Assembly (NCBI RefSeq): GCF_041146345.1
Contig: NW_027191408.1
Span: 248,001-312,000 of the forward strand
Source of the DNA: Neodothiora populina
Taxonomy: Eukaryota
Reading direction: 5' to 3'
DNA length: 64,000 bases
The translations under genes and the position numbers were made by a program. Shown here piece by piece: positions 29,287 through 37,289 of this stretch. Numbering within the stretch: position 1 is the first letter of the stretch; the number at the start of each line of letters is the position of its first letter. The notes under the pieces were generated by a model, which worked only from the letters and a program-made list of their open reading frames with translations, made no database searches and was not told the origin of the DNA.

Positions 29287-31888
29287 ATGGTTTCCAACGA
29301 GCAGCACCACCACCGGAGCACCACCAAGTCTTCGCACAAGCCCTTCAAGTCCAAGCATCTGTCCAAGGGAGCGTTGAAGGAGAAAAGCAAGGGTACGTTG
29401 TGTTCTGTCGCTTCCACCTGCATACCATACCTGCACGAGTCTGACTAGACCTTTCTTCGCTCCAGGCAAAGTCGAGTCACTGTCATTCGAAAAAGGAGCG
29501 AGAAAGACGCCGCACCAGCAGGTCATGTCCAAGTTCGACCGTCGCAACAAGGCAAAGCAGCTCCGAATCACCAAAGGCGCCGAACACGACAAGGCCACCA
29601 GCGTCTTTGCCGGCAAGGATGGCGCTCCCAGGATCATCGCAGTCATTCCTCTCTGTGAAGATATTTCGAGCACCGAAGCTGTCAAGAGCCTGATGCAGAG
29701 TGTCGACGTCGAGGACGAGATCCCGCAGTCTGGAACATACCGATTGGACATCGCCAGATTCAAGCAGAAGCTGCAGTTCATCACGCTCGCACGAAGGAAC
29801 GTCATGGACGCCATGGATGCCTGTCGTCTGGCCGACTTTGTTCTGTTTGTTATGAGCGCAAACGAAGAGGTGGATGCCTTGGGAGACAGCATGCTGCGCA
29901 CCATCGAGAGCCAGGGTGTTTCCAACGTCATGACCGTCGCCCAAGGAATCGACAAGATCGAGCCCGCCAAGAGACGACCGCAAGTCCTGGCCAGTCTGAA
30001 GAGCTTCATCACCCATTTCTTCAACTCCCAGGAGCGTGTGCATTCTCTTGACTCCCGCCAGGACTCGTCCAACGTTGTCCGCTCACTCTGCACAACCACA
30101 CCCAAGGGCATCAGATGGAGAGAGGACAGGAGCTGGATGTTGCTGGACCACTTGCATCTTCCCGAGTCTGCAGAGGACAGTCTTGTTGTCACAGGTGTCG
30201 TAAGAGGAAGAGGACTCAAGGCCGACAGACTGGTTCAGGTGGGTGACTGGGGTGACTTCCAGATCGAGACGATTGTTGCCGCCCCGCTGGAGAGCAAGAA
30301 GAGAGGACCAAAGGACGCAATGGCTGTCGACGACGCCGCACCAGCCCTGGAAGTGCTCGAAGAACCCTCGGCCGACCAGGACGACCTGGAGGAGCTCGCG
30401 CCCGAAGAGATTGCCATGGACGACGCAGAAGACGATTATCCCGTCTCTCTAGCACCCACGGAGCAAAAGGGAGTCCTCCTGGATGACCATCACTACTTCT
30501 CCGACGAGTCTGATGTCGAAGAAGACCTGCCTAAGCGCATGCCCCGTGGAACCTCCAAGTACCAGTCCGCCTGGTACGCTGGAATCGGCGAACTCTCCGA
30601 CTCTGGATCCGATCTCGAGTCGGTCAACGGCGACGATGACGGTGACCTCAACATGGATGGACCTGCGCCTATTCCTGCTGACGGTGTCGAGGGAATGGCC
30701 GGACGCGAAGCTACCGAGTACGCTCCCTCTGAGTACCCACAAAGCGAGATGTTCCTCGATCCCTCGCCCGAGGATGAGGCCGAGCAACTCGCTGCTTACC
30801 GTGCTGAACGAAAAGAAGCCGAGGAAGATCTTGAGTTTCCCGACGAGATCGAACTCCACCCCAACGTCGCCGCGCGCGAGCGTCTGGCCAAATACAGAGG
30901 CCTCAAGAGTCTACGAACATCGCATTGGGAGACATCGGAAGACAAGCCGTACGAGCCGGAAGAGCAGTCGCGCCTGCTCGAGATTGGCAACTACAAAGCC
31001 GCCAAGCACAAGATGGTCAACGAGGCTCTCGTTGGTGGCGTCAAGCCCGGCACTCGAGTTGCAGTCTATCTGCGCGTCCCGGAGACTACTTCTGTACAGT
31101 CATTACGACTGCTACCCGCCCCTACCGGTGTCTTTTCGTTGTTGAGACACGAGCACAAGCGCACGACTTGCAACCACACAATCACGCTCAACAGCGACTA
31201 CCCCGAGCCCCTAAAGAGCAAGGATACGCTTATCATGCAATGCGGACCGCGTCGCATGCTCATCAACCCTCTTTTCTCCCAAGCAGGCAACACGCCGAAC
31301 AACGTCCACAAGTTTGAGCGTTACCTGCACCCGGGTCGCACCGCGGTGGCTACATTCACCGGACCTCTGATCTGGGGCAGCGTGCCGTGCCTATACTTCA
31401 AGCAGACGTCTACCATCCCTGAGCGCGAGATTGACTCGGACGACGAAGACAAGATGGCGGCTCTCGAGAGACCGGGTGAGAAGCCCGAGTACACGCTCAT
31501 CGCCACGGGCACCTCGGTCGCACCGGCCAGCAACCGAGTCATCGCCAAACGCGCCATCCTGACCGGTCATCCTTATAAGATCCACAAGCGTGTCGTCACC
31601 GTGCGCTACATGTTCTTCAACAACGAGGACGTGGCGTGGTTCAAGGCTCTGCAGCTGTGGACCAAGCGCGGCAGAAGCGGTTTCATCAAGGAGTCGCTCG
31701 GCACGCACGGTTACTTCAAGGCGCAGTTCGATGGCAAGATGAACCCCATGGATGCCATCGGTGTCAGTCTGTACAAGAGAGTGTGGCCCAGATGGGCGAG
31801 ACACTGGGTGCCTGGTCAAGAGGGCGGGGCTGCCGATCAGCAGGTCGAGGACGCAGAGGCGCCGCAGCTGGTGGAAATGGCAGAGTAA
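29287..31888 (+). CDS. TSR1: Ribosome biogenesis protein Tsr1 (Bms1-like, 40S maturation)
   Basis: HHHRSTTK.SHKPFKSKH N-terminus, intron 29393-29465, FPDEIELHP, ARERLAKYRGLKSLRTS, RYMFFN.EDV.WFK, IKESLGTHGYFK. Confidence 0.95.
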
Positions 31889-32401: not shown

Positions 32402-32989
32402 ATGGGCTGCATAACCCTGCACCCGCGACCTCTGCTGCAGCAGAACCCTCTGCATCCGCACTCGATACCGACGTCGTCATCAGTATCAACCTCGAGCGAC
32501 GACCATGCCGACGACGGAAAGACTGCAGCAGCGACAACAGCAACAACAACAAACCCCCTCCCGACCCTTCTACACACGCCCTCGGGGCTAGCGATCCTCG
32601 AAGTCCAAGGAACATTCAACCTGCCCTCACCCCCCTCTTCCTCATCCTCCCCCTCACTCTCCTCCTCAGACCCCATAAAGCAAGCAACAAAAGCAACAGA
32701 AGTCGGCCGCCTGGTATTTCCGCTATACGACTACTGCAATCCGACAAACAACGACGACGGCAAATGGATGAAACGCGTATACCTGTACATCGGCAAGCAT
32801 CAGCGCATGACGGGGGAAGTGAAGAAGTTGGGGAAGCCGCTGGCTGTGATTCGGAAGAGAGAAGGCACTCAGAACAAGGTCACTCAGAACACGGGAGAGG
32901 AGGAGGGGACAGAGGAATTGGAAATCGTCGAGATTGTCAGGTGCAAGATTCTGTTCGCCAATAGGCCCGAGCCGGTCGGTGAGGAGTGA
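32402..32989 (+). CDS. CTF8: Chromosome transmission fidelity protein 8 (Ctf18-RFC subunit)
   Basis: LPTLLHTPSGLAILEVQGT, VGRLVF, LYIGKHQRMTGEVKKL.KPLAVI, EIVRCKILFANRPEP. Confidence 0.88.
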   Translation: MGCITLHPRPLLQQNPLHPHSIPTSSSVSTSSDDHADDGKTAAATTATTTNPLPTLLHTPSGLAILEVQGTFNLPSPPSSSSSPSLSSSDPIKQATKATEVGRLVFPLYDYCNPTNNDDGKWMKRVYLYIGKHQRMTGEVKKLGKPLAVIRKREGTQNKVTQNTGEEEGTEELEIVEIVRCKILFANRPEPVGEE

Positions 32990-33798
32990 GCTTTTGTCTT
33001 GTCTCACGTGCGTCACGCAACACACATGCGTATACTGCGCCACTAGCTGGACCCGAGGGCGGGAGCCAGAGACGGGGCCAACTTGCCCAGCTCCGACTAG
33101 AAGCAGTCTGCTCGAGGCATCGCAAGAGTGGCATCACGCCGTCTCGGTTCAGAGCACACACAGGCAGAGAAGACACTGAGACTGTCGCCTGAGAGCTCAG
33201 CAGCATAGACGCTCGGCATAGACGCTCAAAGAAAGCAGCTAGGGGAAGCGCCGAAGACGCCTCTACGGTCTTTGCTTTCTTCTTTCAGCTCCTTCCTGGA
33301 TCGCTTGTCTTGATGCTGGTTCTCTTTACTGCGGACTCGAATCTACCTTCGAAAGGGTCACAGCAGCGGCAGAGGCAGGGACTTCCCTCATTGATCGATC
33401 GGGGAGGAGCCTGGCTATTGTCGTCAGCTATAACGAAAGGCAGACATTCACCTTCAAATGACTACAGAGAGTCACGTGAGACATCTACGACGCTGGTGTG
33501 CAAGGAAGAGAATGAAGGAAAGAAAGGCACCACGCAGTGGCGCCGTCCGCGCAGGACATCTTTTATGGCTTGGGACATGTTTTCTCTCTTGACACATGTT
33601 CGAAGGTCTATTATGCACGAATAGAGAGGCCGAGTTGTTCATCGTCATCTTAACTGCTTCTTGTTTCCGGATCAGGGAAGGTCCCGATTAGTGGTCATTT
33701 GTGGCTGTTAAAATTGTACATGTCTCTCTTCTGTCGTCGCTGCACGACTGTGGTTTGCGCTTATATCGCTCGCGCTTCTTTTTGGCTCTGGTCTTGCG

Positions 33799-33799
33799 C

Positions 33800-33853
<54 letters not shown>
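33799..33853. repeat. (CT)n microsatellite
   Basis: About 27 CT units with one CG interruption. Confidence 0.95.
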
Positions 33854-33857
<4 letters not shown>

Positions 33858-34396
33858 AGCTGTGTTGCTCTTTACATGCCCTCCTCCATCGTCACATTCT
33901 TCCACCACGGCGTTCCCGGCCGGTTTCTACCAAAGGGATATCCCCCGCTACTACTACTCCCACTCCTGCTGCTGCTGCCGCTACTTCTGTTTCCTTGCGG
34001 TTGCTGCTGACCTTCCTGTTGCTGCTGCTGCTGCATGTTCAGCTCCCTCTGCTCCGCATTCATCATCGACTCCTCCACATCGCCGACCTGTCTCCGCTCG
34101 CTGACTTCACGGTGATGATACGACGGCGACGACGACGACGACGACAGCGAAGACGAAATGGGTTTGAGGCGTTTGTTGGCGCGCGACGCCATGCTCAGGC
34201 TGATGGATCTGCTCGACGTCGATGTCAATCCTTGAGACGAGTGTCTTTTGTTTTTGTCTGAGTTATCGTTGTTGTTGTGGTGGTGGCTCATGCCGGGGCG
34301 GACTTGGTATTGTGGAATCGCTGTTGTGGATTCGCCGCTTCCTGCTAGTGATGAGCCCCGTTGCTGGAACCACTCGTCTCTCATGACTGGTCGTTG

Positions 34397-35905
34397 TCAC
34401 TGGAGGGGCTCGGAGGATGACGATAGACGGTTCAGGTGCAGGTAGACGTCGGTGCCGTAGCTGTTTTGTTGCTGGTTAGCTTCGAGGGGCTTTTTGGTGA
34501 GAGAGAAGGCAAAAGGCTTACCCTTCCATACTGATCAGCTTCAGATCCCCGCCAAAGTATCGCGCGTAAAGTCGGCTGATGGGCAGTCCATATCCGAATC
34601 CCGCCATGGGCGCTTTGAAGTCGCTTTTATTAAAGTCTGGATCCAATGTCGGCGTCTGGTCCACCGTGGTATACATGTACGTCCAGACCAGAGGAATGGA
34701 AGACCGGGGGATACCGCCACCTTCGTCCGAAATCTTGATCGTGATGTCCTCCTTGCCCTCGGCAACGACAACTTTGGTCACGGGAAACTCCTCCTTGTCC
34801 TGTCCGTGGGTTTCCACAACGGCGCGGAGAGAGTTCTTGAGAGTCTCGAACAGCATGTGCGACAAATGGCCCGGCACGTACATGAAGTGCAAGTCGGGAT
34901 TGCACACGAGCTGGACCTTGGGCGCGTCGAAGAGACCGTAGTGATCCTCACAGACGAAGCGCGCGTTCTCAATGGCTTCCTGAGCCAGATCGCGCACGTT
35001 CGTCTTGGTGCAGATGATTCCGACATAGTTCGGGTCCGAGTGGGTGCGCTGGTCGGTCAGAGCTATGTGCTGGCCGATCAGCATTCGTATGCCAATACGA
35101 GACATGTAGAAGCGATCGAGAAAAGCCTGGATGTTGTGGTCGATCTGCATGCGTTGCCGCTTGCGCTTGTACTCGAGGATGCCCTGGGCGATGGTGGTGA
35201 CGACGCTGTCGTGGCGCCGCTTGATCACGTCCAGAGTGCTGGCGAAGCGCGTGTTGTAGTCGTTGAGCTCTGGCGGCCACTCGCCGTTGTCGTCGGCCCC
35301 GCTGAAGTATCTCCTGGTGGCCGTCACTTTCTTGTTGTCGCCATTCTCGCTTCCGTTGCCGGTGCTCAATTGCGATCGGTACTGGCCTCGCGGCACGCTG
35401 GGGTTCTGCGTCGTCTCGCTCAAGACGCGCGAGTTTCTCCCGGCTTGTTTCGCGGGTTTCAATAGACGTTCCCGTATCTCGGCGCTCAGACTGGGTTTCT
35501 GGAGTGTTGTGATTTCCTACATGTGACGCCGTTTGTCTGAGCCTTATAGACCAAATTTGAGAGCATGTCATCATCGCTCACCTCGAATGACTGGGCGTAC
35601 CAATCCTGCACCCTCTTGATCGAGGGCATATCGTTCAGCCCATCAGGCAAGTCACTGAGCTCCTGCACACGGTGCGCCAACCGTATAGGTAGCTCCTCTG
35701 ACAAGAATTGCGAAGCTCTGAACAATGTTCCTGCATAACGTCATGATACTGTTTTTGTAGCAGTCAGGAAAGGCGGGCAATTGAACATACCAACAGAGGG
35801 CCTCTCTCCAAACTGCACCATCTGCCTCAGGCTCACGCCCGTGGCAGGGAATTTGGAGTAATGTCGGATCGTGTCCATGAGCTCGGCCGACTTCTTCCAC
35901 GACAT
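34397..35905 (-). CDS. Mitochondrial pyruvate dehydrogenase kinase (PDK/BCKDK family)
   Basis: FPATGVSLRQMVQFG, ELPIRLAHRV, FLDRFYMSRIGIRMLIGQH, ETLKNSLRA, ISDEGGGI, MAGFGYGLPISRLYARYFGG. Introns near 35789-35732, 35581-35517 and 34521-34461; ends LSSSSEPLQ*. Confidence 0.95.
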
Positions 35906-36118
35906 GATTGGCAGCAGTTGAAGGCCTCGCGGCCAGACTCAGCGTGGGGGTTTTACTGTATTATCTCAGACTAATATAGCAAAAGAGAGCAGAGGTATAT
36001 AGAGAATACAAGACAGAGGAACAAGCATGGAAAAGAGGAATAGAAGAAAGAAGAAAGAAAAATAGAGAGACAGAGCACACGAGTATCCTAAAAACCAAAT
36101 GTGAGTCAAATGTCATAT

Positions 36119-36232
36119 GAGAGAGAGAGAGAGAGAGGTCGTAAATCTACCCTACCCTTACTTTAGCCTTGCCCTCGAGTTTCGCCCCGGGCCTGCGGAG
36201 AAGCAGCAATAGACTGACTGACTGACTGACTG
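36119..36232. repeat. (GA)n and (GACT)5 microsatellites upstream of PDK
   Basis: GA run at 36119-36136; GACT x5 at 36212-36231. Confidence 0.85.
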
Positions 36233-37289
36233 TGCTCCAAGGTCCCCCAAGAATAATGCTGCTGCGGCTTGCTTCGATCTACACACGTTACCGTAGCCGA
36301 CTTACTAGGTAAGGTAAGGTACATACACTACTCGATCTTTCTCTGTGCATTTCCCCGTCACATGCACCACATCATCTACTTGCCTCACCCTACCCTACCC
36401 TATCCTACCTAGGCCCTTTGCACCTTGTGGCCCTTTCACACTCGACCCCCACACTTCGCAATCTCGCACCGAGGCCTGAACATCGGGCCAAAGCGCCCGC
36501 TTCGGCAATGTGATTGTCTCTCTGTAGGTTTTTGATCTGTACGAAGACAGTTCGGTACATGCGACAGTGACTATGTGAAAGAGAGCCCCCCTCCCGATTC
36601 GGTCCATTCGGCCCATATTTGCTGTTGTAATACCGCATACTTTTGGTATATATTGTGTGTCCACCTCTGTCGCAGGTCCAGGTCCAATCGTCGACATACT
36701 CCGCATGCATGCGCGCTGATAACGCTACAAAGTACAAGTAATTAACCTGCCTACATGGTCTCGCAAAAACCTACAGTGTTGCGCTACTCCGCTCTGTTCT
36801 CTTCAATTCAACCGTACCACAATGATCGTCAGAATCGTCGCGTCGTTTGTTGCCTATTGGAGTGGGTGGGTGGGTGGGTGGGTCGGTGGTGGAGGGAGTG
36901 CTAGCTCACAGACAGACCTACGGTAGGTCGAAGAGCAGCAGGCAGTCCTTGCCCCCTCATGTCGCGCGCACGCGGAAGGAGTGGATCGTCTTGAACTCAG
37001 TAGTACAAAGTGTCGTCGTCGTACAACCACACACAGCGTTGTGTCTAAACATACATCATCGTCTATAATCATACAAGGACGCGCCTGCCCTTCCACTGGC
37101 GCTATCCTGGAGAGCGGAAAAATTATGGTACACATTGAAAGTCTTTTTTTCTTTTGATGCCCACCGAAACGCCGCGCCAACTGCAAATGCATCCGGAATG
37201 AAGACCTGATCATGCAATGCCCATCCCAATAATCCCAAATCATGTGCGTCGCGCTGTACAGAGCTATCGTATCAGGGCGGGTGAGTGAT

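Follow-up and report, generated by a model that had tools for sequence, protein, structure and literature searches.

In the 64,000-nucleotide stretch of Neodothiora populina DNA analysed here (the window; positions are counted from its first letter), the minus-strand gene for pyruvate dehydrogenase kinase (PDK) ends in a TGA stop codon (34397-34399) behind which the reading frame stays open for 174 codons. Comparison with related fungi points to conserved programmed stop-codon readthrough that would yield a long PDK isoform, a reading to which we assign a probability of roughly 0.85. A readthrough-extended kinase had been the main proposal of a first-pass annotation of this DNA, and it now finds support in the frame, in the ratio of non-synonymous to synonymous substitution rates (dN/dS), in the nucleotide context of the stop and in mRNA-like contigs of relatives. 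That ribosomes pass the stop, and at what rate, we infer from these comparisons.

The extension is kept in frame and constrained in relatives

Using two extension motifs only, we retrieved 58 metagenome loci, four of which leave too little sequence ahead of the match to reveal the upstream neighbour. The last PDK exon lies directly upstream of the extension in all 54 informative loci, and none of the 58 has the extension beside anything but PDK. The SERRQVGD motif stands in the PDK frame in 53 of the 54, and in 52 exactly one stop separates EPLQ, the end of the kinase, from an open extension of 71-141 codons that closes with PWW[KR]NV.MEEG. Since the frame is kept, all length differences among the relatives are multiples of three; the DEW and PWW motifs are conserved as well. 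From a 43-sequence codon alignment, whose protein guidance in itself favours low dN, we obtained a median pairwise dN/dS of 0.27 in frame, with all 497 unsaturated pairs (of 903) below 1, as against 0.90 and 1.35 when the same blocks of the same alignment were shifted by one or two bases. Variability at codon positions 1, 2 and 3 of the extension was 0.35, 0.30 and 0.52, respectively. Conservation begins at the first post-stop codon, and the majority-base fraction in relatives, 0.67 with codon periodicity over the last 60 nucleotides (nt) of the extension, is 0.37 past the second stop. A conserved frame, indels of 3n, retained DEW and PWW motifs and a dN/dS below 1 had been named beforehand as the comparative check on readthrough, and the proposal passes it, so that the extension, judged from these relatives, is protein-coding in the PDK frame. 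We regard the relatives, and not the window sequence, as the decisive support for this conclusion. Judged by the window sequence by itself, an open frame of this kind is moderately unusual: 58 of 5000 dinucleotide-preserving and 8 of 5000 mononucleotide shuffles retain it.

Within the window, the minus strand at the end of PDK reads GAG CCC CTC CAG TGA CAA CGA CCA GTC ATG AGA (EPLQ followed by TGA at 34399-34397), and 174 in-frame codons follow from 34396 to 33875, up to a TAA at 33874-33872, as the first-pass annotation had reported and as both the sequence and the list of open reading frames (ORFs) bear out. This extension (33875-34396) is the longest stop-to-stop ORF of the region, other frames reaching at most 133 aa. 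It opens with QRPVMRDEW (34370-34396), and the alignment of relatives marks four further conserved elements: SSQGLT (34223-34240), the basic motif MASRA.K.LK (34163-34192; consensus LASRAMKLK), REVSERRQVGD (34079-34111) and the C-terminus PWWKNVTMEEGM (33875-33910). REVSERRQVGD is flanked by lineage-specific poly-S and poly-Q expansions (34016-34156), triplet repeats that are absent from the 42 other aligned versions; the triplet tracts comprise CTG x6 at 34016-34034 and ACG x12 at 34120-34156. As had also been noted at first pass, the repeats inside the extension are frame-preserving trinucleotides, and the dinucleotide array, a (CT)27 microsatellite recovered by a repeat scan in the 3' untranslated region (UTR) at 33799-33853, appears only just past the second stop (TAA, 33872-33874), the putative end of the long isoform, after which conservation drops in the relatives. 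At 174 codons the window extension is the longest of all, because of poly-S and poly-Q/Gly-Ser-rich insertions between the conserved motifs, and its AMKLK motif is altered to ANKRLK.

A Pfam search of the extension returned no family, a search of the PDB with the last exon of the window plus the extension alone gave low-complexity matches only (Shaker channel and similar), and the best score in an ESM Atlas search with the protein P0124 was 0.80, under the meaningful level. AlphaFold2, run on the readthrough product of the relative contig L037 with a 38-row alignment, gave a mean pLDDT of 54, with the extension below 45 in every 10-residue block; a complex prediction of PDK core against extension scored 0.00 in a run without controls and counts neither way.

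Nucleotide-level conservation of the stop and of its 3' context

Stop and context were counted in 45 unique versions, the window included. All 45 have a stop at this place (TGA in 23, TAG in 19, TAA in 3) and none a sense codon, and the hexamer that follows is CAACGA in 24, CAATTA in 11, CAACTA in 5, CAATCA in 3, CAACAA in 1 and another in 1. Thus what is conserved of the leaky TGA-C context pointed out at first pass is a nucleotide pattern, CAA-NNA, found in 44 of the 45 versions behind a stop of varying type: +4 to +6 are CAA and +9 is A in 44/44 (CAA CGA at 34391-34396 in the window), +7 and +8 vary, and the residue of the second codon is R, L, S or Q. The Gln ahead of the stop is encoded by CAA in 33 and by CAG in 11, and other upstream synonymous sites vary freely. 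Because CAA and A(+9) are invariant while the second residue changes, the constraint lies on nucleotides and not on amino acids.

The positions that matter for readthrough have been described as +4, +5, +6, +8 and +9, +7 being without effect, with CAA UUA, the Tobacco mosaic virus (TMV) context, as the most effective (PMC9272376, in the portion of that paper available), and the invariant positions observed here match this rule. The TMV replicase signal (UAG CAA UUA; type I, hexanucleotide-only), whose motif is described in PMC9272376, recurs as TAG CAA TTA in 11 of the 45 versions, and the other PDK versions are one or two changes away from it, keeping CAA and A(+9); the viral product is a polymerase, whereas PDK is a nuclear-encoded mitochondrial kinase of fungi whose stop may be TGA, TAG or TAA. 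RNAalifold, applied to 20 sequences around the PDK stop, found no conserved structure (-0.58 kcal/mol, 0 compensatory pairs), and this lack of a conserved downstream structure fits a context-only signal. Two other recoding mechanisms were rejected, selenocysteine insertion because the stop is not always TGA and frameshifting because the extension lies in frame 0.

The consensus strings for leaky stops at +4 to +9 are CAR-YYA and CAR-NBA. Namy and colleagues reportedly described, in 2001 and 2003, the yeast leaky context CA(A/G)-N-(U/C/G)-A and found readthrough genes with it, and 43 of the 44 CAA-NNA hexamers fit this consensus, including TGA CAA CGA of the window; the exception is that of contig L055 (CAACAA, with A at +8). 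We know of no yeast readthrough gene whose extension is conserved over class-level distances, and of none that encodes PDK. In both fungi and animals, readthrough also gives rise to peroxisomal forms of glycolytic enzymes and enzymes related to them, with a short UGA CUA context and a cryptic type 1 peroxisomal targeting signal (PTS1). The PDK case would resemble these as conserved cellular readthrough that gives a central metabolic enzyme of fungi a second isoform, and differs from them in its CAA-NNA context and its long extension (71-174 aa). This extension ends in EGM, EGL, EGV, EGT or GEV and has no SKL-type tripeptide, so that under the PTS1 rule peroxisomal targeting is not indicated.

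By crude best-hit assignment, the best named matches of the TGA-CAA-CGA group are Aureobasidium, Friedmanniomyces, Meristemomyces and Cryomyces, and those of the TAG-CAA-TTA/CTA group are Pleosporales. Over 377 residues the L003 protein is 100% identical to the A. pullulans PDK, as is the L015 protein over 419 residues to that of F. endolithicus, and the tail of L056, which has TAA CAA TCA, is 74% identical over 46 residues to that of a Hyphodiscus (Leotiomycetes) model; this likeness places the arrangement both in dothideomyceta and in a sordariomyceta lineage. On these assignments, the conservation of stop and 3' context as nucleotides spans the Dothideomycetes and extends to a Leotiomycete-like contig.

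mRNA-like contigs retain the stop that public gene models bypass

Eight intron-free contigs of 1.7-2.1 kb (L009, L010, L027, L035, L037, L042, L049 and L051) hold the PDK ORF, the stop, the extension and another 166-288 nt. With a 5' leader, a whole ORF and a 3' tail they resemble assembled fungal mRNAs, and they occur beside intron-containing contigs of the same organisms. L037 and L049 are 98.5-100% identical to the genomic contigs L038 and L053/L052, apart from three gaps, in the genomic copy, that coincide with the intron positions; through stop and extension the two kinds of contig are colinear. As these colinear, intron-free contigs carry the extension, the mature mRNA in those lineages retains the stop, is unspliced around it and is not polyadenylated ahead of the end of the extension. 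Polyadenylation upstream of the extension, which the first-pass annotation had named as refuting its own proposal, is therefore excluded for those relatives, whose contigs run on beyond the second stop by the length given above. Metagenome contigs of this mRNA-like kind may be useful as transcript evidence for eukaryotic genes in general. For the window itself, a single sequencing run, probably of DNA (share 0.13), yielded two near-identical contigs, at 33572-33788 and 34975-35279, and otherwise low-complexity matches, and is uninformative on expression, transcript ends and editing.

When 1.8 billion representative proteins were searched with the extension, five small ORF products of 88-127 aa were returned, all ending in PWW[KR]NV.MEEG; four begin MR[DE]EW and one, P0121, begins MTS. 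Among the best 120 PDK homologues, the tail is present in nine Dothideomycete models, in the Leotiomycete Hyphodiscus model (P0095) and in one record filed under oak, likely a contamination, and it contains REVSER[RK]QVGD.. together with, in most of them, PWW[KR]..MEEG. A profile search for longer carriers of the extension found 12 proteins, all 12 of them PDK models. Across the 132 proteins collected, 55 end at EPLQ and none reads from EPLQ into Q.PV through a sense codon. The stop is bypassed in models P0009, P0012, P0029, P0030, P0050, P0061, P0095, P0101, P0107, P0130, P0131 and P0132, with predicted junctions that vary from model to model (EPLQ/PMVDEG, ISMEG/PMVDEG, YGTD/DEW, YGTD/QLPV, LSSS/ELIRS and others; the slash marks the junction). 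The Aureobasidium-like DNA of L003/L006/L030, for instance, reads EPLQ, stop, QRPVMRDEWFQPVIDRPMVDEG, and the A. melanogenum model P0009 reads EPLQ/PMVDEG. The differing predicted introns over the stop, present in about a dozen fungal genomes, look like systematic annotation artefacts, and public PDK models in at least a dozen Dothideomycete genomes would then wrongly jump the stop by invented introns.

The start of the extension resembles the animal PDK tail

When the L037 product, with X in place of its stop, was compared by phmmer with human PDK2 (2btz_A, E 2e-77), the alignment ran through the stop, setting '..eplqXqlpvm.rdgwasselih' against '..dsv---erlpvynksawrhyqtiq' and thereby covering about 15 post-stop residues (LPV..W); in the alignment with PDK3 it reaches l-p-v, five post-stop residues. 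The window motif QRPVMRDEW aligns with the human PDK2 tail segment (e)rlpvynksaw. The earlier remark that mammalian PDKs have a Trp-containing tail which the 440-aa product lacks thus holds, as HMMER aligns the post-stop residues with just that tail of human PDK2. In animal PDKs, the C-terminal tail reaches over to the partner subunit and contributes to holding the E2 lipoyl domain. With the tails of animal PDK1-4 (PDB 2btz, 1y8n and others), the post-stop residues align at LPV and W, equally far from the kinase core in both; the animal tails belong to a single unbroken ORF, and outside the aligned residues the fungal tail, which is the longer, has an unrelated sequence. The resemblance is short and emerges only with the kinase domain as anchor, and a tail-only profile, searched against the PDB up to E 10, matched no PDK, its best match being a nickel-binding protein (E 0.23). 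The post-stop residues are likely homologous to the start of the animal PDK tail, a homology that stops short of proven because the match is short and the tail-only profile misses PDK.

Readthrough weighed against other explanations

The alternative that survives best is a separate small downstream ORF (MRDEW...MEEGM) of 85-170 aa, translated from the in-frame ATG 12 nt past the stop (34382-34384) by reinitiation or from a short transcript of its own, which the first-pass annotation had kept as its fallback. Compatibly with such initiation, 37 of 44 unique versions have the ATG, and the stand-alone proteins of 88-137 aa listed by ORF callers mostly begin MR[DE]EW. The ATG is replaced, however, by CTG, ACG, AGG or ACT in 7/44 versions, in which conserved residues precede the next Met, and since the ATG is missing there and conservation starts directly at the stop, we consider this alternative improbable. 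The four codons between stop and ATG are themselves conserved, align with the human PDK tail and carry the CAA..A constraint, the last of which a 5' leader would leave unexplained; 53/54 loci preserve the frame with respect to PDK; and we know of no established mechanism on cellular eukaryotic mRNAs for reinitiation after a 440-codon ORF.

Alternative splicing that removes the stop, with the long isoform made from a minor mRNA, is what many public models assume, inasmuch as the longer PDK models (12, plus P0095 of Hyphodiscus) join PDK to the extension via predicted introns. We hold it to be highly improbable: the junctions differ between models, as expected from gene finders forced round a stop, colinearity through the stop holds for 8/8 intron-free mRNA-like contigs, and splicing would leave the conserved CAA-NNA and the conserved codons directly past the stop unexplained.

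Extremely improbable, in our estimate, is A-to-I editing of the mRNA that turns the stop into TGG, an option also mentioned at first pass and known from sexual-stage transcripts of Sordariomycetes. Stop-loss editing does exist in filamentous ascomycetes (PMC13123824, available portion), and one edit suffices to convert TAG or TGA to TGG. The stop of PDK varies among TGA, TAG and TAA, however, TAA would need two edits, and RNAalifold finds no conserved hairpin at the stop, and it is this variable stop type and missing hairpin that speak against editing. The Sordariomycete DBF2 stops, by comparison, are strongly TAG-biased and lie in hairpin loops, and DBF2 of Fusarium graminearum, a fungal kinase that, as proposed for PDK, gains a C-terminal extension by stop bypass, does so by stage-specific editing at a TAG in a hairpin and acquires a compositionally biased extension (both from the available portion of PMC13123824), whereas the PDK extension has strongly conserved motifs. 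PDK thus has neither the TAG bias nor the hairpin loop of the Sordariomycete editing targets; moreover, its conserved element is the known readthrough hexamer, and the eight cDNA-like contigs carry the genomic stop, though contigs hide minor variants.

That the frame is a chance product of non-coding, GC-rich triplet-repeat 3' UTR, a caveat raised at first pass, has in its favour the 58/5000 open dinucleotide shuffles, the other frames of up to 133 codons and the lack of a Pfam family, and is left with negligible probability by the relatives, in which frame, motifs, dN/dS and second stop are conserved across 52/54 loci.

Several points nevertheless weigh against readthrough. The loci were chosen by extension motifs, so that the share of PDK genes without an extension is not derivable from them, and they are phylogenetically related, so that their counts are not independent events; the protein guidance of the dN/dS alignment, the frequency of the downstream ATG and the brevity of the animal-tail match have been described above. 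TAA, generally the least leaky stop (PMC13517186, in the portion available), is found in 3/45 versions, which would be expected to be poorly leaky. In L055 (1097-1380) the extension is interrupted 21 codons in by another in-frame stop, a TAA, at a site that is CAA in L044, the nearest relative of L055; beyond this extra stop the extension is intact and in frame, and assembly error, recent decay and a double stop are all possible. In L057 (613-830), ~210 nt of intron-like sequence (GTAAGT...CTGAC...CAG) come immediately behind the PDK stop TAG; with this segment removed, a divergent extension (..REISERRQVGDLEEM..) is back in frame, and the CAA-NNA context is absent.

A possible pair of PDK isoforms

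If readthrough operates as we propose, most ribosomes would end at the TGA (34399-34397) and release a tail-less kinase of 440 aa, while CAA CGA after the stop, a leaky hexamer of the TMV and yeast type, would lead a fraction of ribosomes to decode the stop by a near-cognate tRNA and to continue for 174 codons to the TAA (33874-33872), yielding a kinase of 615 aa with a C-terminal tail. The residue inserted is mostly Arg, Cys or Trp at UGA and mostly Gln, Tyr or Lys at UAG (PMC13517186, as given in its available portion). The long form might constitute an E2-docking or differently regulated kinase pool, with the leakiness of the stop setting the ratio of short to long. It is speculative that the tail restores an animal-type C-terminal arm and that readthrough efficiency sets the docking-competent fraction. 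Tentatively, and at less than even odds, the arrangement can be envisaged as an ancient two-isoform switch of the pyruvate dehydrogenase (PDH) complex, in which a stop inside the equivalent of the animal tail has been leaky since before Dothideomycetes and Leotiomycetes split, the bulk of the kinase being tail-less and the tailed fraction docking on the E2 core or otherwise changing regulation.

Should this be true, the efficiency of translation termination would feed directly into carbon flux through PDH. Readthrough of PDK in itself would bring a central metabolic regulator into the conserved cases of cellular readthrough, with an unusually clear comparative signature and a textbook signal. 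To our knowledge, few cellular genes have conserved, functional readthrough, and the cases documented in fungi mainly concern peroxisomal targeting. The two PDK forms would offer a natural experiment on tail function if the tail is the equivalent of that in animals. No publication linking PDK with readthrough was found in the literature searched, subscription journals being outside its coverage.

Structure and neighbourhood of the PDK gene

The PDK gene model in the window comprises four exons joined across three GT..AG introns (1323 nt, 440 aa), all on the minus strand: exon 1 at 35791-35905 with the start ATG at 35905-35903, exon 2 at 35582-35730, exon 3 with the kinase core at 34522-35516, and a last exon (34460-34397 with the stop) whose coding part, 34400-34460, ends in ..YGTDVYLHLNRLSSSSEPLQ, a 20-residue peptide that agrees at 19-20 of 20 positions in the 54 related loci; the putatively leaky TGA that follows is the annotated end of PDK. 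The 440-aa product is 89% identical end to end with that of the intron-free relative contig L009. Exon 3 matches the Pfam families BCDHK_Adom3 (1.8e-28) and HATPase_c (5.4e-09), and a protein search with it returned 5337 homologues, the top named matches being Dothideomycete PDKs (88%); nearest to the window PDK are unnamed proteins at 92%, followed by Cryomyces at 88%. Searched against the PDB, the L037 product matched human PDK1-4 at E 6e-74 to 8e-82 and BCKDK more weakly (8e-55). By both domains, the predicted product is a mitochondrial kinase of the PDK/BCKDK type (GHKL fold).

The 5' flank of PDK (36032-36321) is dense in short tandem repeats, including (GA)9, (GACT)5 and an AAAGAAG array. 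Downstream of PDK lie a Tsr1 ribosome-biogenesis gene at 29525-31888 on the plus strand (Pfam RIBIOP_C 5e-109, Tsr1_G-like and AARP2CN) and a Ctf8 gene at 32402-32989, also on the plus strand (Pfam Ctf8 6e-47), which is convergent with PDK, the two 3' UTRs sharing ~880 bp. In P0131 (587 aa), a public gene model from Aureobasidium, PDK and the extension are fused with a Ctf8 domain, from which it follows that Ctf8 adjoins PDK in that Aureobasidium genome too; the model itself looks like an annotation merge.

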